Virus record (IMG/VR): IMGVR_UViG_3300024054_000550
Span: 1 to 45,201 of that record
DNA length: 45,201 bases
DNA from: a virus
Taxonomy: Duplodnaviria; Caudoviricetes
Direction: 5' to 3' (one strand)
This document shows positions 530-18,810 of the stretch, piece after piece. Below the pieces are notes generated by a model. The model made no database searches and was not told where the DNA came from. It saw only the letters and a program-made list of their open reading frames with translations. Position 1 is the first letter of the stretch. Every line of letters starts with the position of its first letter. Made by a program: the position numbers and the translations under genes.

Positions 530-1120
530 TTACAGGATGCCTTCCTCTTTTAGAACATTTACATCCTGCTCGACTAAAGTAATATTTGTTTCAATATTTA
601 TTTTTAGAAGAGCGTCCTGAAGATCTTGCTTAAAACGCTTTAATTCCTTAAGTTTATCATTCGCTGCTTCGATATCGAATTTGTTAAGAACAGTTGTATC
701 TACAACACCAAAATTAGAGTTAAGATACATTGCTCTGGTTGAAATTTCCGCAGATACATTAGCAGCCTTTGCTTTATTCACCCGAGCTGTTAATTCGTCA
801 ACTGTTTTTGCTTCAGGAGTATTTGCTAACAATTCTCTGATAGCAATTCTGCTGTTAATGTACTCAATTTTTGTAAGCAAGTCATTAATTCCAGCCTGTG
901 TGTTAGCCCGGCCAACTAATGTTCGAATATTGAACAACGTTTCATTCAATTGTTCCTTGCGTGTAACTAAGTTGAAAAAATTGGTCTTGGCTTCTTTAAT
1001 TGCACTATCAATGGAAGGTGTAAACTCTGTTACAGACGTAATCACATCTAACTTGATAGAATTAATAATTCTACGAATCTCAGCTTGAATCGCACTTGCT
1101 TTACGAAGATTTATTTGCAT
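530..1120 (-). CDS. helical/coiled-coil hypothetical protein (possibly DIP1984-like)
   Basis: 196-aa ORF with SD AAGGA and heptad-like pattern; family resemblance is tentative. Confidence 0.6.
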   Translation of the reverse strand: MQINLRKASAIQAEIRRIINSIKLDVITSVTEFTPSIDSAIKEAKTNFFNLVTRKEQLNETLFNIRTLVGRANTQAGINDLLTKIEYINSRIAIRELLANTPEAKTVDELTARVNKAKAANVSAEISTRAMYLNSNFGVVDTTVLNKFDIEAANDKLKELKRFKQDLQDALLKINIETNITLVEQDVNVLKEEGIL

Positions 1121-1174
1121 TTTTAATCCTTTTTAATGTTATTATATCATAACGTATTTTCAAATTCATCCAAA

Positions 1175-1378
1175 TTATTGCAATGACATATATGCGATAT
1201 GTTGCAGAACATCTGGATAATTAAGTTCGAGATATTCTAACTCATTTGGAAGAAGTTCTTCACCATTATGTTTGTATCCTTCTGTGAAATATGCATCACA
1301 GAAATCTGGATAATCTTTAGGATCAACGCCATCGACTCCAAGAGAACTGATATTAACTTCATTCATGGTAATGCACAT
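1175..1378 (-). CDS. small acidic phage hypothetical protein (DYPDFCDAY motif)
   Basis: ORF directly behind early promoter copy 2; motif typical of small phage proteins. Confidence 0.65.
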   Translation of the reverse strand: MCITMNEVNISSLGVDGVDPKDYPDFCDAYFTEGYKHNGEELLPNELEYLELNYPDVLQHIAYMSLQ

Positions 1379-1414
1379 TTTGATTTCTCTCTCAATTACT
1401 GTTTTAGTAAAATC

Positions 1415-1442
1415 ATTATATCACAATCTCTTAAAATATAAA
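1415..1442 (-). promoter_or_regulatory. early promoter, copy 2
   Basis: TTTATA-N16-TATAAT with TGn extended -10. Confidence 0.75.
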
Positions 1443-1507
1443 GCGATTTTTGAAAATATTTTTTAAGTTATTAACATTTATTGTGTTTTACCAAAACACT
1501 AGTTACT

Positions 1508-1602
1508 TGGCGGAGCGTATTGGATTCGAACCAATGATCCCTATTTTTGCAGGAATGCTCCCTTAGCAGGGGAGTGCCTTCGACCAACTCGGCCAACGCT
1601 CC
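1508..1602 (-). tRNA. tRNA-Ser(GCT)
   Basis: Cloverleaf with long variable arm, loop CTGCTAA, GTTCGAATC, encoded CCA. Confidence 0.95.
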
Positions 1603-1634
1603 AGTATTTTAATACTCGTTTTTAATGAATTATA

Positions 1635-1709
1635 TGGATGCAGCCGTGGCAGTTTGCATCCACTTCCAACACAGGTTATGAGCCTGGTGTCAGACTAACG
1701 GAAGCTGCG
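1635..1709 (-). tRNA. atypical tRNA-Met(CAT), initiator-like
   Basis: Loop CTCATAA in CAGG/CCTG stem, C1:A72 mismatch, CCA end; D-arm and T-loop (TGCAAAC) non-canonical. Confidence 0.65.
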
Positions 1710-1716
1710 ATTATTT

Positions 1717-1809
1717 TGGTGAGTGACCACGGATTCGAACCGCGAATGTTCACCTCGAGGGACCAGATTTACAGTCTGGTGTAGCACACGCCATAGCTAC
1801 AAGTCACTC
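1717..1809 (-). tRNA. tRNA-Tyr(GTA)
   Basis: CCAGA-CTGTAAA-TCTGG, long variable arm, GGTTCGAATCC, CCA. Confidence 0.93.
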
Positions 1810-1813
1810 ATAA

Positions 1814-2175
1814 TTTTTAACAAATTAAATACTCAGGTGTGCTGTTACGCCAAAGAATTTATAATTGCATTTGTACCGGGCACCATAATCCATTGGTAGC
1901 AATAACCATTCTAATTAGTAGTCTGGCACCATACCAGTTTGCCATCTTCTCTGAGCTAGGTCAGGTGGTTATGCTGACTAGGTTTATCTCAGGAAGTGAT
2001 ACAGTTCAATCGGATCTCCTATTGTCTGTATCCAGTACTATAAATTCACTCCTTAGCGGCAAATATTCTCGGTGATATCCCGATTTAATCTGTTGACCCT
2101 GGCACAATCAACTGATTATACTGTATCAATGGCTGCTTTTAAGCCTACCGTCCGGAGTACTTAATTTGTTAAAAA
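1814..2175 (-). ncRNA. large structured RNA containing a split LSU rRNA H43-H44 (uL11-binding GTPase-associated centre) mimic
   Basis: 21-bp terminal stem (1814-1834/2155-2175, one G.U); GGACGGUAGGCUUAAAAGCAGCCAU (2153-2129), CCGCUAAGGAGU (2059-2048) and GCGUAACAGCACACC (1850-1836) match 23S/28S positions ~1054-1105. Confidence 0.85.
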
Positions 2176-2244
2176 ACTTATATTTGAACTTATCTGTTCA
2201 TTTATTTTACAGTAAAATTATATCACAATTTCTTAAAATGTGAA
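2167..2244 (-). promoter_or_regulatory. early promoter copy 3 with boxB-like hairpin and boxA-like leader
   Basis: Promoter 2217-2244; hairpin TGAAC-AGATAA-GTTCA 2185-2200; GTTTTTTAACA 2167-2177. Confidence 0.7.
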
Positions 2245-2267
2245 GTGATTTCAAACATTTTTTTATA

Positions 2268-2437
2268 TCTAATGATTAGAGTACTGCCATCTGTTTAAGG
2301 ACATATAGTTGTCCCCTGAGTAAGTAATATATCCCACCACAGGATTGCACATTATAGTGATTACTTATACAGGTCGGTATTACCATGACAGTCTGGCCGT
2401 TGGTTAGACACTTCGCTCACAGACTCTAACTATTAGA
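2268..2437 (-). ncRNA. candidate structured RNA (~170 nt), family unknown
   Basis: Terminal inverted repeat 2268-2282/2423-2437; nested stems ACUGUCAU/AUGGCAGU, CCUG/CAGG, UAAGUAAU/AUUACUUA, GGACA/UGUCC. Confidence 0.6.
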
Positions 2438-3074
2438 ATTTTCTCATATTACCTTTATGATCAATAATCCATGCATGAAATTTAATGTTAGGATATTCTG
2501 ATTCTAACGATTTAAAATAACTTAAATTTGTTCTTGAGTCATCATACATATGAACATCAGAATAATTCCCAATTTCGATATCTTTACGAATGTGAACCAA
2601 TTTTTTCTTAGCTGGAATATCATTCCCGGGGAGATTACCAGCTCTATAAACATAGATATCATCTATGTCTATACCATATTTCTTAAACGTATTCAAGAAT
2701 AAATGTTTATCATTAAAATCTTCCCGAGCAGTATTCATAATAATCTTTGAATTAGGAGTTAGATTTAATTTAATCTTATTATGAATCCTGTTTAACTGTT
2801 CAATCATTTGCATGATTGGCTTTGATTCTGTATTGAATTTTAGAGAATCTCTGAACTCGGTAAAATCATATTCATTTCCTTGTTCCAGTTTATGATTATT
2901 GAACTCACTACTAGTTAGTTTTTGCAGAATATTACCTGTTTTATCTTTAACTATAATTTCTGCATTTGTGTGCATTAATGTTTCGTCAATATCGAAAACA
3001 TGTAATGAACCTGATGAACCTGATGAACCTGACGAACCCGTCGAACCTTCTGCTAAAAATTTTTTGAAACTCAT
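2433..3074 (-). CDS. HAD-superfamily phosphatase (possibly RNA-end healing)
   Basis: Motif I VFDIDET, motif II NTAR, motif IV MYDDS; N-terminal GSS repeat from a 9-nt tandem repeat. Confidence 0.75.
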   Translation of the reverse strand: MSFKKFLAEGSTGSSGSSGSSGSLHVFDIDETLMHTNAEIIVKDKTGNILQKLTSSEFNNHKLEQGNEYDFTEFRDSLKFNTESKPIMQMIEQLNRIHNKIKLNLTPNSKIIMNTAREDFNDKHLFLNTFKKYGIDIDDIYVYRAGNLPGNDIPAKKKLVHIRKDIEIGNYSDVHMYDDSRTNLSYFKSLESEYPNIKFHAWIIDHKGNMRKF

Positions 3075-3116
3075 TTTTTAAAGTTCATTAGAATTATCAT
3101 AAATTAAAACAAATTG

Positions 3117-3192
3117 CTGACCGAGCAGAGAACGATTCTGCCTCCTCCTGATTAACAGTCAGGCACGTCTCACCAATGAACGTTATCGGTCA
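3117..3192 (-). tRNA. tRNA-Asn(GTT), non-canonical T-loop, no encoded CCA
   Basis: All four stems pair; CCTGA-CTGTTAA-TCAGG; T-loop ATCGTTC. Confidence 0.8.
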
Positions 3193-3220
3193 ACGATTTG
3201 CTTTAAATTAAAATTCACTT

Positions 3221-3247
3221 CTGCTCTACCAACTGAGCTATCGAGGA
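3221..3247 (-). pseudogene. 5' fragment of a tRNA (acceptor strand + D-arm)
   Basis: TCCTCGATAGCTCAGTTGGTAGAGCAG with no anticodon or T-arm following. Confidence 0.65.
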
Positions 3248-3262
3248 ATAAAGTTATTTATA

Positions 3263-3380
3263 CCATATCAAAGAATACTGGTATCTTAGGATTCGTTCAT
3301 TAAGCAGACCGGCCGGCTCTCTTAATTTTTAATCCCCAATCAAACCCGATCAAGGTTCAATTCAATATTCTTTAATATGG
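3263..3380 (-). ncRNA. candidate structured RNA (~118 nt) abutting the tRNA-Glu 3' end
   Basis: 15-bp closing stem CCAUAUUAAAGAAUA/UAUUCUUUGAUAUGG (U.G on minus strand); inner hairpins AACC/GGUU, GGAUU/AAUCC, UUAAG/CUUAA. Confidence 0.55.
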
Positions 3381-3453
3381 CGTCTCCACGGGGATTCGAA
3401 CCCCGGTACCAACCGTGAAAGGGTTGTGTCCTAGGCCTCTAGACGATGGAGAC
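3378..3453 (-). tRNA. tRNA-Glu(TTC)
   Basis: CAACC-CTTTCAC-GGTTG, canonical T-arm, CCA. Confidence 0.96.
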
Positions 3454-3464
3454 ATATTTTAATT

Positions 3465-3540
3465 TGGTGGAGGATGACGGGATCGAACCGACGACACCCT
3501 GCTTGCAAAGCAGGTGCTCTCCCAGCTGAGCTAATCCCCC
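3465..3540 (-). tRNA. tRNA-Ala(TGC)
   Basis: GGGGGAT start with G3.U70, loop TTTGCAA, CCA. Confidence 0.96.
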
Positions 3541-3574
3541 AAAATTCATTTAACACAAAAACACGGGTTTATTC

Positions 3575-3657
3575 TGGTGGGGAATGAGAGACTCGAACTC
3601 TCAAGCCGAAGCGTCTGATCTTAAGTCAGATGTGTTTGCCAATTTCACCAATCCCCC
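3575..3657 (-). tRNA. tRNA-Leu(TAA)
   Basis: TCTGA-CTTAAGA-TCAGA, variable arm, CCA. Confidence 0.95.
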
Positions 3658-3672
3658 AAAAAATCATCATAA

Positions 3673-3695
3673 TTCCCTAACCGGACTTGAACCGG
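3673..3695 (-). pseudogene. 3' fragment of a tRNA (T-arm + acceptor strand)
   Basis: CCGGTTCAAGTCCGGTTAGGGA isolated in AT-rich spacer. Confidence 0.5.
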
Positions 3696-3758
3696 AATTT
3701 TTAAATCAATTAATTTTAAAAGAGCTGTTTAATGTATTATACATACATTTTTTTAATC

Positions 3759-3849
3759 TGGCGGAAGGCTGGAGAGTCGAACTCCAAAGGCGCTATTAAC
3801 GCTCAACTGTTTTCAAGACAGGTACCGTCACCAATCGGTTTGGCCTTCC
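3759..3849 (-). tRNA. tRNA-Ser(TGA)
   Basis: Loop CTTGAAA, long variable arm, CCA. Confidence 0.95.
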
Positions 3850-3857
3850 GTATAACT

Positions 3858-3932
3858 TGGAGCATCTAGTCAGAATCGAACTGACATCCTCAGCTTGGAA
3901 GGCTGTGATAATAACCATTATACGATAGATGC
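3858..3932 (-). tRNA. tRNA-Gly(TCC)
   Basis: CAGC-CTTCCAA-GCTG, U73 discriminator, CCA. Confidence 0.95.
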
Positions 3933-3947
3933 ATTCTAATTTAAAAT

Positions 3948-4022
3948 TGGCACGCTTGCCTGGATTCGAACCAGGAATGAGGGTTTAGAAGACCCTAGTG
4001 ATATCCCTTTCACCACAAGCGT
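3948..4022 (-). tRNA. tRNA-Arg(TCT)
   Basis: AGGGT-CTTCTAA-ACCCT, GGTTCGAATCC, CCA. Confidence 0.95.
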
Positions 4023-4096
4023 AATAATCTTTTATTCAAATTAAAACATATTGTAATGATACCAGGTTCGACCCTGGGTAACATTAAGATACATTT

Positions 4097-4179
4097 TGTT
4101 AAAGAGCTTGTTAAATATTTGAACTTATCTGTTCATTTATTTTGTAGTGAAATTATATCACAATTTCTAAAAATGTAAA
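4097..4179 (-). promoter_or_regulatory. early promoter copy 4 with boxB-like hairpin and rrn-type boxA
   Basis: Promoter 4152-4179; hairpin 4120-4135; GCTCTTTAACA at 4097-4107 (E. coli rrn boxA is TGCTCTTTAACA). Confidence 0.8.
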
Positions 4180-4242
4180 GTGTTTTTTGAATATTTTTTG
4201 AATTTTTTTTTTGCAATTTTTTGAAAATTACAAATGCTGAAT

Positions 4243-4318
4243 TGGTGCTCTGTGACTGAATCGAACAGTCTATCTCCGGGTTACAAATCCGGCGCATCGC
4301 CAGCAATGCTTACAGAGC
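4243..4318 (-). tRNA. tRNA-Thr(TGT)
   Basis: CCGGA-TTTGTAA-CCCGG, CCA; late promoter TATAAATA at 4326-4333 just upstream. Confidence 0.93.
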
Positions 4319-4342
4319 GTATTTTTATTTATATTTGAGTAT

Positions 4343-4510
4343 TCAAACCGGTCCAACCATCCGAGCGTGACACCCAGTATGCTTCGAGCGTTTGTTAATT
4401 CCAATAATCATTTCTTGAGCATCTTTCTTTGATTTAAATTTATCAAGAAAGATTTTTCCATCATCACGAACGACACGAATTTGATATTCACGATTTTCCG
4501 AGCGATTCAT
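4343..4510 (-). CDS. 55-aa early hypothetical protein (not in ORF track)
   Basis: MNRSENREYQIRVVRDDGKIFLDKF...MVGPV*, SD AAGGA, behind promoter copy 5. Confidence 0.65.
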   Translation of the reverse strand: MNRSENREYQIRVVRDDGKIFLDKFKSKKDAQEMIIGINKRSKHTGCHARMVGPV

Positions 4511-4560
4511 TTCGATTCCTTAAAATTCCTTAAAATGCTCAACAAATATTGAGTAAAATC

Positions 4561-4588
4561 ATTATATCACAATTTCTGAAAATGTAAA
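4561..4588 (-). promoter_or_regulatory. early promoter, copy 5
   Basis: TTTACA-N16-TATAAT with TGn, phased A-tracts upstream. Confidence 0.8.
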
Positions 4589-4686
4589 GTGATTTTTGAA
4601 ATTTTTTGAAAATTTTTTGAAAATATCTTGGGACGTAAAAGAATTGAATTGATTCTTTTATCATTCCCAAGACATTTATGCCGTAA

Positions 4687-5373
4687 TTAGAACTTGTAAG
4701 AACTCGTGATGGAGAATTGATTCTTACGATTTACACCAAGAGAATCATTACCGGTAATGTCGTATTTAGCAACAACAGTTATGTTCTTAGTTAAATCTTT
4801 AGCAACCGAGATATCGTAGCTTGTTCCAGATGTGTTTCGTTTATTATACCAATCCTTAGAAATTCCACCAGAAATGTTATATCCAGAATAGGCACTTCCG
4901 TATCCAATTCTAGCATATGAATCTTTAGAATTATTCAGAACAGAAGAATCTAAAGTTTTAGAATATTCTGCTGAAACACCATAAATTGTTGTACTAATGA
5001 AAGCCTCTCCAAAATTAAGGTCAGATGCCTTTCCAAGATCATTGCTTCCACTATATGAATAAATTCTATACCCAGCAGATACAGGAACACTTAGTACATT
5101 TTTCTGAATTCCACCAGAAACGATATGAAGCATATTAGCTTTTCGTTCTTTAAGACTAACGGTATTTAGATCATAAGTACCGAACAGCCCTCGAACTGAA
5201 TCTTTGACAGATGCACTAAATCCAAGACCTAGATCATTGTCTGTAATTGTATTCCCTCGTAATGTATTATTGGTACTTCCGAGAACAGATGCTGATGTTT
5301 GAATATCAGCTTGTGCGACTGTGCTCATTCCGATTAGAATGATTGCTTTACTTAGATTGCTTAAATTAAACAT
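4687..5373 (-). CDS. outer-membrane beta-barrel protein (TorF-like putative porin)
   Basis: Signal peptide (AQA), amphipathic beta strands, C-terminal YKF barrel signal. Confidence 0.7.
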   Translation of the reverse strand: MFNLSNLSKAIILIGMSTVAQADIQTSASVLGSTNNTLRGNTITDNDLGLGFSASVKDSVRGLFGTYDLNTVSLKERKANMLHIVSGGIQKNVLSVPVSAGYRIYSYSGSNDLGKASDLNFGEAFISTTIYGVSAEYSKTLDSSVLNNSKDSYARIGYGSAYSGYNISGGISKDWYNKRNTSGTSYDISVAKDLTKNITVVAKYDITGNDSLGVNRKNQFSITSSYKF

Positions 5374-17442: not shown

Positions 17443-18810
17443 TGTAAAACCGCACTATCTTCAGTCGTGCGGATGTAAGCGAATACATCATTATTTAGCA
17501 ATTTATTTTGATATATTTATAAATATAAAATATGAAACAATTTCTTGCTTACAAGTACAGGATTTACCCAACAGAGGAACAGCAAGTTCTTCTGAATAAA
17601 ACCTTTGGCTGTAAGAGGTATGTGTACAATCATTACCTGAATGAACAACAAGAAAGATACAAGAATAAAGAGAAACATCTTTCTCACTTTGATATTAATA
17701 AGGACATAACTAATCTCAAGAAAACAAATAAGTGGTTAAAAGAGGTTGATTCTATTGCATTACAAGCGGCAGCAGAGGATTTATCTGTTGCATATGTTAA
17801 TTTCTTCAAGTCAATAACTGGTAAAAGGAAAGGATCGAAAATAGAACTACCTAAGTTCAAGAATAAACATTCGAGACAGTGTTATAGAACCAGAAGTGTC
17901 AGAGTAAATGAAGATGGAACTTTGTATATACCAAAACTTAAATCAGTTAAAGCAGTTATACATAAACCGATACCTGATAATGCAATAATCAAATCAACAA
18001 CAATATCAAAAAATTCAGATGGAAGGTATTATGCTTCTATCTTAGTAGAAACAGAAGTACAATTACAGCCAATGACTGGAAAGGAAATTGGTTGCGATTT
18101 AGGTCTTAATGATCTCTTGATCACAAGTAATGGACTAAAATTCAAGAGTCCAAATAAACTAGAAAACATCGTGAAAACCAAGCGATTGTTGAAAATTAAA
18201 CAAAAGCAGTTCGCAAGAACTATCAAAAGCAGTAAAAACCACGAAGCTCTTCGCCTACAAGTAGCACATCTCTACTCAAAAATCACAAGACAGAGGAATG
18301 AGTACTATCATTTAATCAGCAGGTACTTAGTTGATAACTATGATTCTATTTATCTTGAGGATTTAGCAGTTAAGAACATGTTACAGAACAGGAAATTGAG
18401 TAGAGTCATACATGAAACAGCATGGTCTACATTAATAGAAATGATTGCATATAAAGCAGGTTCTGCTGGCAAAGTATTCCATCAAATCAATCGGTTCTAT
18501 CCGAGTTCAAAAATATGTTCAGGATGTGGTCACACACTTCAGAAACTTGATCTTGGAATAAGAACATGGGTTTGTCCTAACTGTGGTGAAATACATGATC
18601 GAGATCACAATGCTGCAAAGAATGTGCTCAAGGTTGGTCAAAATGACTGTTATGGAGAAAGAATAAAGTCACATGCAATAGGTGACTTGGAATTAATGAT
18701 TCCAATGGCTTTACAGAAAATGACTAGTAAAATCGAGAGATCTGGTATATACTTGCCAGTTAGTCATGGGAGTGAGCAAGCTACACAATCTTTGGTTGTG
18801 TAGTAGTTGA
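17443..18810 (+). mobile_element. IS200/IS605-family tnpB-only element
   Basis: Left hairpin CCGCAC-TATCTTCAGTC-GTGCGG, right hairpin CTACACAATC-TTT-GGTTGTGTAG then TAGTTGA; removal restores the host reading frame; ends uncertain by about 1 nt. Confidence 0.85.
17532..18803 (+). CDS. tnpB: RNA-guided nuclease TnpB
   Basis: YKYRIYP HTH, RuvC GCDLG / LEDL / DRDHNAA intact, CxxC...CxxC zinc finger. Confidence 0.95.
   Translation: MKQFLAYKYRIYPTEEQQVLLNKTFGCKRYVYNHYLNEQQERYKNKEKHLSHFDINKDITNLKKTNKWLKEVDSIALQAAAEDLSVAYVNFFKSITGKRKGSKIELPKFKNKHSRQCYRTRSVRVNEDGTLYIPKLKSVKAVIHKPIPDNAIIKSTTISKNSDGRYYASILVETEVQLQPMTGKEIGCDLGLNDLLITSNGLKFKSPNKLENIVKTKRLLKIKQKQFARTIKSSKNHEALRLQVAHLYSKITRQRNEYYHLISRYLVDNYDSIYLEDLAVKNMLQNRKLSRVIHETAWSTLIEMIAYKAGSAGKVFHQINRFYPSSKICSGCGHTLQKLDLGIRTWVCPNCGEIHDRDHNAAKNVLKVGQNDCYGERIKSHAIGDLELMIPMALQKMTSKIERSGIYLPVSHGSEQATQSLVV

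Follow-up and report, generated by a model that had tools for sequence, protein, structure and literature searches.

A family of phage RNAs with a core predicted to fold like the GTPase-associated centre of the ribosome

The question raised by this locus is what a bacteriophage does with a non-coding sequence that reads like part of the large ribosomal subunit. The window, that is, the whole stretch of 45,201 nucleotides analysed (IMG/VR record IMGVR_UViG_3300024054_000550), is part of a T4-like myovirus whose capsid protein is 70% identical to those of Vibrio phages of the pv27 group. Within its tRNA gene cluster, an array of ten tRNAs, lies a 362-base non-coding element at positions 2175-1814 of the minus strand. 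The sequence in question is the GTPase-associated centre (GAC) of 23S/28S rRNA, which consists of the tip of helix H42 with helices H43 and H44 (E. coli residues 1051-1108) and is also known as the 58-nt uL11/thiostrepton domain. Positions in the core of the element are numbered here as in E. coli 23S rRNA. Among free-standing natural RNAs we are aware of none that copies one of the ribosome's functional centres.

A sequence-only reading had proposed that the element rebuilds the GAC from three rRNA-like blocks, separated by inserts of 69 and 197 nt and held within a 21-bp stem. All of these parts were confirmed in place, as follows (window coordinates):

2155 to 2175, minus strand: 5' arm of the 21-bp closing stem, a plain helix that replaces H42
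2129 to 2153, minus strand: piece 1, 23S residues 1054-1078, H43 with the 1067 loop
2060 to 2128, minus strand: insert 1 (69 nt), a pair of hairpins in tandem that is grafted in between 1078 and 1079; seen in some members only
2048 to 2059, minus strand: piece 2, residues 1079-1090, comprising the lower H43 3' strand, the 1082-1086 triloop, A1088 and the H44 5' strand
1851 to 2047, minus strand: insert 2, a 197-nt multi-branch domain between 1090 and 1091, with a closing stem and a UUUG linker (1854-1851)
1836 to 1850, minus strand: piece 3, residues 1091-1105, H44 with the 1095 loop
1814 to 1834, minus strand: 3' arm of the closing stem, pairing with 2175-2155

The closing stem forms 21 consecutive pairs, one of which is G-U. 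The core is identical to E. coli 23S rRNA at 37 of 52 positions and to six further rRNAs at 39-43 of 52; a seventh, whose 3' end is out of register, agrees at 34 of 52. Blocks 1 and 3, in order and at the observed level of match, were found in none of 200 mononucleotide-shuffled windows, and block 1 alone appeared in them once. The folding z-score against shuffles is -4.45 for the whole element, -4.05 for insert 2 (for a segment offset by 1 nt) and -2.69 for insert 1, in agreement with the earlier view that both inserts fold independently.

The window copy is a member of a family. A search of viral contigs with an H43 pattern gave at least 119 loci (about 190 estimated), and an independent search with a 3'-block pattern gave at least 120 (about 390 estimated). 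At 94 of 108 distinct 3'-anchored loci H43 was found upstream within three mismatches; 11 others were read by eye, with a diverged H43 in seven, none in three and one truncated. The family comprises 169 distinct elements, from which 146 distinct cores were extracted, with an estimated ~390 viral contigs and eleven cultured phages as carriers. The window copy has the H43 block, the 1079-1090 block, the stem and UUUR graft at 1090/1091, the H44 block with A1101, the closing stem and the tRNA-array context by which the family is recognised. The whole window element has no blastn match in cultured phages, and its 25-nt first block has no exact match in viral contigs. The family is rare in cells: across 185,579 prokaryote genomes, a pattern designed to skip rRNA matched 26 times, at 19 elements and at seven true rRNAs. 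In a search of plasmids, 459 records matched the H43 part only and are most likely rRNA operons; the one examined, the 207-kb plasmid 1 of Aromatoleum aromaticum EbN1 (L286), carries a full family member.

Both ends of the element were found in the cultured phages GAP32, CBB, Kaldavass, XbC2, BF, pf16, XacN1, Aeromonas 4_4572, Vibrio 2.275.O, fHe-Yen9-04 and UNO-G1W1, the copies in Vibrio 2.275.O and fHe-Yen9-04 being diverged. None of these eleven phages annotates the element as RNA. The hosts include Pseudomonas putida (pf16) and P. fluorescens (UNO-G1W1). A match in Paenibacillus phage Pd_22F proved to be true rRNA, and one in Acinetobacter phage ME3 was not confirmed by the element pattern. 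No element was found in the 49 kb with most of the tRNA genes of Vibrio phage pv27, the closest cultured capsid relative of the window. Over 5,136 bp the window is 100% identical to a 160-kb metagenome contig, which is not counted as an independent case because both may derive from one sample. At one locus (L044, 1501 and 1819) two different family members stand in tandem with tRNA-like sequence between them.

Covariation was assessed with one member per insert cluster and canonical spacing only (105 of 120), so that pairing had not been used in the extraction. The measure was APC-corrected mutual information over 2,926 column pairs. The top 15 pairs are all predicted pairs. They comprise pairs of the closing stem (1047-1054 with 1105-1112, including 1054-1105), 1055-1104, 1057-1081, 1058-1080 (z of 19), the first three pairs of insert 2 and the tertiary pair 1082-1086. 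The sequence-only reading had named covariation across the separated blocks as a check on itself; it is strong and includes pairs between pieces. The measure is not tree-corrected, but up to four pair types per column among members with unrelated inserts would be hard to reach by descent alone. The H42-H43-H44 secondary structure of the GAC is thus supported by covariation in the family. The mean length of the closing stem is 7.8 bp, and it falls to 2.0 when the partners are shuffled; the stem covaries freely and does not have the H42 sequence. Ranks 16 and 17 are taken by 1056-1082 and 1056-1086, a three-base correlation that would be expected only if the junction folds in three dimensions and that has a precedent in rRNA.

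The bases of the tertiary contacts are conserved at 98-100%, a value partly fixed by the search patterns. As judged by conservation and covariation rather than by structure, the tertiary partners U1060-A1088, 1082-1086, G1071/G1091-C1100 and C1072/C1092-G1099 are kept. The exposed A1095 is retained in 103 of 105 members and a purine at 1067 in 104 of 105, with G in 14. The window copy itself has C1057-G1081, G1058-C1080, C1082-G1086, U1090-A1101, A1061, A1067 and A1095, all as had been claimed. Two interpretations attached to these residues were overstated. C1082-G1086 is a eukaryotic pattern and had been taken as a sign of archaeal or eukaryotic type; it is absent from the three archaeal 23S sequences compared and is a common state of the family (UA in 55, CG in 33 and AU in 8 of 105 members). 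A1061 had been regarded as simply stabilising. According to the part of PMC6239185 available, U1061A makes the fold less stable in monovalent ions and more stable only when Mg2+ is present; in the family U is the commoner base at this position (62 of 105, with A in 33).

Together, covariation and conservation indicate that the fold matters. The conserved uL11-contact pair, A1095 and the purine at 1067 indicate that something probably binds this RNA as the ribosome is bound. The best reading, which we hold tentatively, is that the RNA, with uL11 bound, may work as an off-ribosome decoy for those host proteins that recognise the base of the ribosomal stalk. It is ranked ahead of the four alternatives considered below.

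The inserts are important for the first of these. Insert 2 occurs in essentially all members, and in the H43-anchored viral set only one locus looks insert-less (L011, about 1495-1560, plus strand: an apparently insert-less, diverged GAC-like element on a viral contig, among tRNA-like sequences). It begins directly after U1090 with a stem, whose pairs 1-3 are kept in 99, 98 and 92% of members, and ends with a 4-nt linker, UUUG in 138 and UUUA in 23 of 169. The graft site is family-wide, while the sequence of insert 2 in the window is unique to that copy. Throughout the family the inserts range from 27 to 369 nt and fall into 120 clusters among the 169 members, with no common sequence. One sub-motif, CACCCC followed by a small hairpin and GGUAAGG near the 3' end of insert 2, was seen in 16 of the 120 clusters (L004, L010, L025, L057, L079 and others); it is absent from insert 2 of the window copy. 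When the 169 inserts were compared by blast with E. coli 16S and 23S rRNA, five weak matches were obtained (E 0.01-0.04). One of them, an exact 13-mer of the sarcin-ricin loop in insert 2 of L249 that is not predicted as a hairpin, was not accepted and may be chance. A stretch just upstream of the L002 element resembles H69, which may also be chance.

The second graft site, 1078/1079, is used in 12 of 169 members. A dedicated scan for inserts of 15-45 nt at this site gave 11 loci, some overlapping the earlier members. The inserts at this site consist of a single hairpin with four further bases or of two hairpins in tandem, and they too use 4-nt linkers, of other sequence. Insert 1 of the window copy is of the two-hairpin kind and is the longest among the 169 members. 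The description of the element as three pieces is therefore true of the window copy but not of the family, since 146 of 169 members have canonical spacing at 1078/1079. Insert 1 lies on the strand of the 1067 stem, near the uL11 face, and may hinder uL11 binding.

These features are what could be expected if the uL11-capped GAC fold were a stabilising head that protects the ends of the RNA and displays insert 2 as the working part. The near-universal presence and diversity of insert 2 agree with this, as do the graft, which looks engineered, and the tolerance of a second graft site. In addition, U1090 forms a Watson-Crick pair with A1101 in 145 of 146 cores, compared with U1101 in the six in-register U1090 rRNAs; this looks like a reinforcement of the graft point. 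Against such a role, the inserts have no common sequence and in some members are just 27-45 nt long, and the factor-facing A1095 and the purine at 1067 are kept more than a scaffold should need. We consider this scaffold possible but rather doubtful. It is important to note that a pure decoy, the reading we prefer, does not explain the near-universal insert 2 with its conserved sub-motifs.

The predicted folding of the window copy introduces a second alternative. In a nearest-neighbour model, piece 2, the UUUG linker and the start of piece 3 form a competing helix with a computed pairing probability of 0.98, the probability of the 1058-1080 pair is 0.0, and neither the lower H43 stem nor H44 is formed in the free minimum-energy fold. 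The E. coli 58-mer, used as a control, folds correctly under the same model. The model has no terms for tertiary contacts, Mg2+ or protein, and the 1058-1080 probability exceeds 0.5 in only 47 of 120 members; for these reasons the competing helix does not refute the GAC fold. The energy gap between free and constrained folds was uninformative: it is 14 kcal/mol for the window copy, which ranks 35 of 120, and 12 kcal/mol at the family median.

The UUUR linker might, by pairing with the 1083-1086 triloop, hold the RNA in an off state from which uL11 or Mg2+ would flip it into the GAC fold, so that RNA processing would change or insert 2 would become exposed. Pairing of the linker with the four positions 1083-1086 is possible in 120, 117, 118 and 102 of 120 members, and the alternative helix dominates in the window copy. 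Compensatory changes are nevertheless absent, the triloop is invariant, and the alternative helix exceeds 0.5 in only 3 of 120 members. The insert-1 grafts, with linkers of different sequence, suggest plain geometry instead. A ligand switch of this kind is improbable.

A third alternative is that a fragment of rRNA was captured together with a self-splicing or mobile insert, or that the ribosome takes up the piece in exchange for its own. Like a group I intron, insert 2 is preceded by a U and in most members has G as its last base, and the core is identical to real rRNAs at 39-43 of 52 positions. Against this, the linker ends in A in 24 of 169 members, the shortest inserts have 27 nt, no Rfam intron matches, and the closing stem covaries freely. 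The test for a group I intron gave no catalytic core, no invariant terminal G and no spliced product. In five complete carrier genomes a large-subunit rRNA model finds no rRNA piece besides the GAC, over which it scores 23-27 bits in three of the five, under a cut-off of 50. This alternative is largely refuted and now very improbable.

The neighbourhood of the elements was also considered. Of the 115 elements flanked on both sides by 700 nt or more, 78 have a tRNA or tmRNA in their locus and 51 have one within 60 nt. All 485 nearby tRNA/tmRNA calls (overlapping loci counted again) are on the strand of the element. Among 130 neighbouring ORFs, 28 match Pfam and none encodes a ribosomal protein; HNH is the only family found twice, and a dedicated protein partner gene was accordingly rejected. 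None of five complete carrier genomes, two of them shared with the rRNA scan, has a uL11 gene. These scans, with that for rRNA, indicate that the element has no fixed partner gene and is neither a leader nor part of a fragmented rRNA. In XacN1 (L280, 32-682) an RNA ligase gene ends about 10 nt before the element, a single case.

The setting in the window suggests how the RNA might be made. The relevant features are:

2217 to 2244, minus strand: predicted sigma-70 promoter (-35, 16-nt spacer, extended -10), ~40 nt upstream of the element
1717 to 1809, minus strand: tRNA-Tyr(GTA), starting 5 nt past the closing stem
1508 to 1602, minus strand: tRNA-Ser(GCT), likely on the transcript of the element
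about 189-297, 1403-1476, 2165-2263, 4095-4210 and 4547-4650: copies of the promoter block, with 16-nt spacer and extended -10

The promoter has 11 of 12 matches plus TG and is among the three best sites in 1100-4700; the same block recurs at about 4588, 4179, 1442 and near 250. The five diverged copies of the block (78-91% alike) punctuate the tRNA array. The simplest reading would be a transcript that starts with the element, runs into the tRNAs and has its 3' end freed by RNase P. Several other features of the window were observed. Between tRNA-Tyr and tRNA-Ser lies a tRNA-like remnant with a CAT anticodon loop (1632-1712, minus strand; z of -1.9) that neither ARAGORN nor Rfam reports. A second self-closed folded element (2268-2436, minus strand; z of -2.28), with no blast match among the loci fetched, is found between the promoter and an ORF for a HAD-superfamily phosphatase-like phage protein (2433-3074, minus strand), itself within the tRNA array. 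Seven relatives of this ORF have no such RNA element nearby, and the HAD relatives are not tied to the RNA. A transposase-like gene (17532-18803, plus strand) stands on the opposite strand within the tail gene region.

Evidence at the RNA level comes from a relative of the window copy. Public RNA runs were searched with the GAP32 locus (L201:600-1800, element at about 978-1226). The runs were picked for holding the GAP32 stretch, and assembled contigs are silent on ends, strand and level; uncovered flanks were not counted as evidence by themselves. In four of the five runs on record as RNA, from three studies, the contigs are essentially confined to the element, with the insert intact: X6, 245 nt (984-1220); X11, 238 nt (989-1225); X12, 202 nt (1014-1215); and X18, 298 nt. 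In the fifth, X10, a contig of 6,594 nt extends through the element. Two more runs are RNA by guess only: X3 gives a 270-nt contig that stops at 1235, and in X1, as in X20, a run of unstated kind, the contig passes through. The transcript that the earlier reading had called for is thus represented by element-sized contigs of this relative, which hint at a discrete, unspliced RNA of about 240-270 nt for the GAP32-type element. The retained insert is a further point against the intron remnant.

In addition, the X18 contig leads from 1233 back to 975 across 8 intervening letters, and so assembles as a circle of ~268 nt would. The 8 letters are absent from the flanks of five cultured relatives, and the sibling run X6 lacks the joint. 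Such a joint could also arise by template switching at a long stem or from a tandem copy; a circular RNA of ~268 nt is therefore a weaker hint.

With these observations the preferred reading, the uL11-bound decoy, can be set out in steps. The element would be a stand-alone phage RNA gene with a conserved core predicted to fold like the GAC. Transcription would begin from the promoter at 2244, and the RNA would be released by RNase P at tRNA-Tyr and perhaps by RNase III acting on the long stem. Folding would be driven by Mg2+ and uL11, and the predicted GAC fold is likely to bind host uL11 off the ribosome. The complex may then compete for factors or toxins that act on H43/H44, and this competition would keep translation running for the phage. 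In this reading the variable insert 2 would serve as an adaptor particular to each lineage or as a stabilising domain. Four further points were counted against the decoy: the G at 1067 in a minority of members, insert 1 near the uL11 face, the competing helix of the window copy and the X10 contig.

The remaining alternative concerns uL11 itself, which is identical with relC and is required for RelA activation. The RNA might titrate free uL11, so that new ribosomes would lack it and ppGpp synthesis would fall. The conserved uL11-contact bases and the early-type host promoter predicted here are consistent with such a sponge. However, existing ribosomes would retain their uL11 through a short lytic cycle, so the dampening of RelA would be quantitatively weak, and insert 1 may weaken binding in the window copy. 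We regard it as unlikely, behind the scaffold and ahead of the switch. As for toxins, the available part of PMC8661411 describes Tre23, a bacterial toxin that modifies H44 residues 1095-1098 and so demonstrates that this site is open to toxin attack; it is an interbacterial effector and not an anti-phage toxin.

It is important to compare the element with known systems. Like the rRNA GAC, it has a colinear sequence, the same helices, U1060-A1088 and 1082-1086, the base-triple partners and the 1067 and 1095 loops. Unlike it, the phage RNA is free-standing, self-closed by a variable stem and provided with U1090-A1101; it carries grafted helices at 1090/1091 in the whole family and at 1078/1079 in the window copy and a minority, and no other rRNA accompanies it in the carrier genomes tested. 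Pseudo-ToxI repeats and RNA anti-CRISPRs are phage RNA decoys of defence systems, in which a phage RNA likewise imitates a host RNA and neutralises a host protein. Here, however, the imitated RNA is a functional centre of the ribosome.

Leaders of ribosomal protein mRNAs also imitate the rRNA site of a ribosomal protein outside the ribosome, as does the uL1 site on the rplK-rplA mRNA (PMC10931766, in the part available). These leaders are cis-regulatory and encoded by the host, whereas the phage RNA lies among tRNAs and copies a whole tertiary domain. In the window no cognate ribosomal protein gene follows the element, tRNA-Tyr coming next, and the available part of PMC10931766 names no mRNA leader bound by uL11. 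GOLLD and ROOL are large structured phage RNAs found near tRNA arrays, their function being given as unknown in the portions of PMC12286853 and PMC5737381 available, and GOLLD too has a conserved and a variable part. They differ from the present family in size and fold, and no rRNA-like core is reported for them in those portions. One family locus, L021, has a ROOL nearby.

No named family covers the element, in accordance with the earlier reading. At gathering score Rfam 15 gives only tRNAs in the window, with nothing over the element at E up to 10 and no match to LSU rRNA (RF02541). No Rfam family was found over family elements in 38 locus scans (some loci repeated), and GOLLD, ROOL and the other Rfam 15 families have no covariance-model match to them in the window or in these scans. 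No published description of the family was found in the openly available literature searched, including the main texts of PMC5737381 and PMC12286853 as far as available; motif lists in supplements may carry this RNA without a name. The family of GAC-mimic RNAs in phages is thus apparently undescribed and outside Rfam. The proposal that the element rebuilds the GAC is upheld by the absence of an Rfam family, the covariation between separated blocks and the element-sized RNA contigs of a relative. To the family the window copy adds the largest form of the second graft site, a predicted promoter of its own and the competing helix, and by way of a relative the hints of a transcript and of a circle.

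In the widest form of the proposal, large phages would produce a free copy of the ribosome's factor-docking stalk base in the form of a modular and possibly circular RNA. It would load host uL11 and intercept translational GTPases, RelA or rRNA-attacking defence toxins, with swappable domains at two graft points. As a whole this is a speculative picture, and we consider it less probable than the decoy reading by itself. If true, it would define a class of viral RNA whose mark is the imitation of a ribosomal functional centre. The presence of the family in hundreds of unrelated large phages would imply a host pressure on the ribosomal stalk base during infection, for which a defence toxin, RelA and competition for factors are candidates. 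The family also shows two places at which large grafts are tolerated in the well-studied 58-nt domain, and it provides a second sampling of the covariation of that domain, taken outside the ribosome. It lies unannotated in cultured phages, including pf16 and UNO-G1W1, and can therefore be approached by experiment now.
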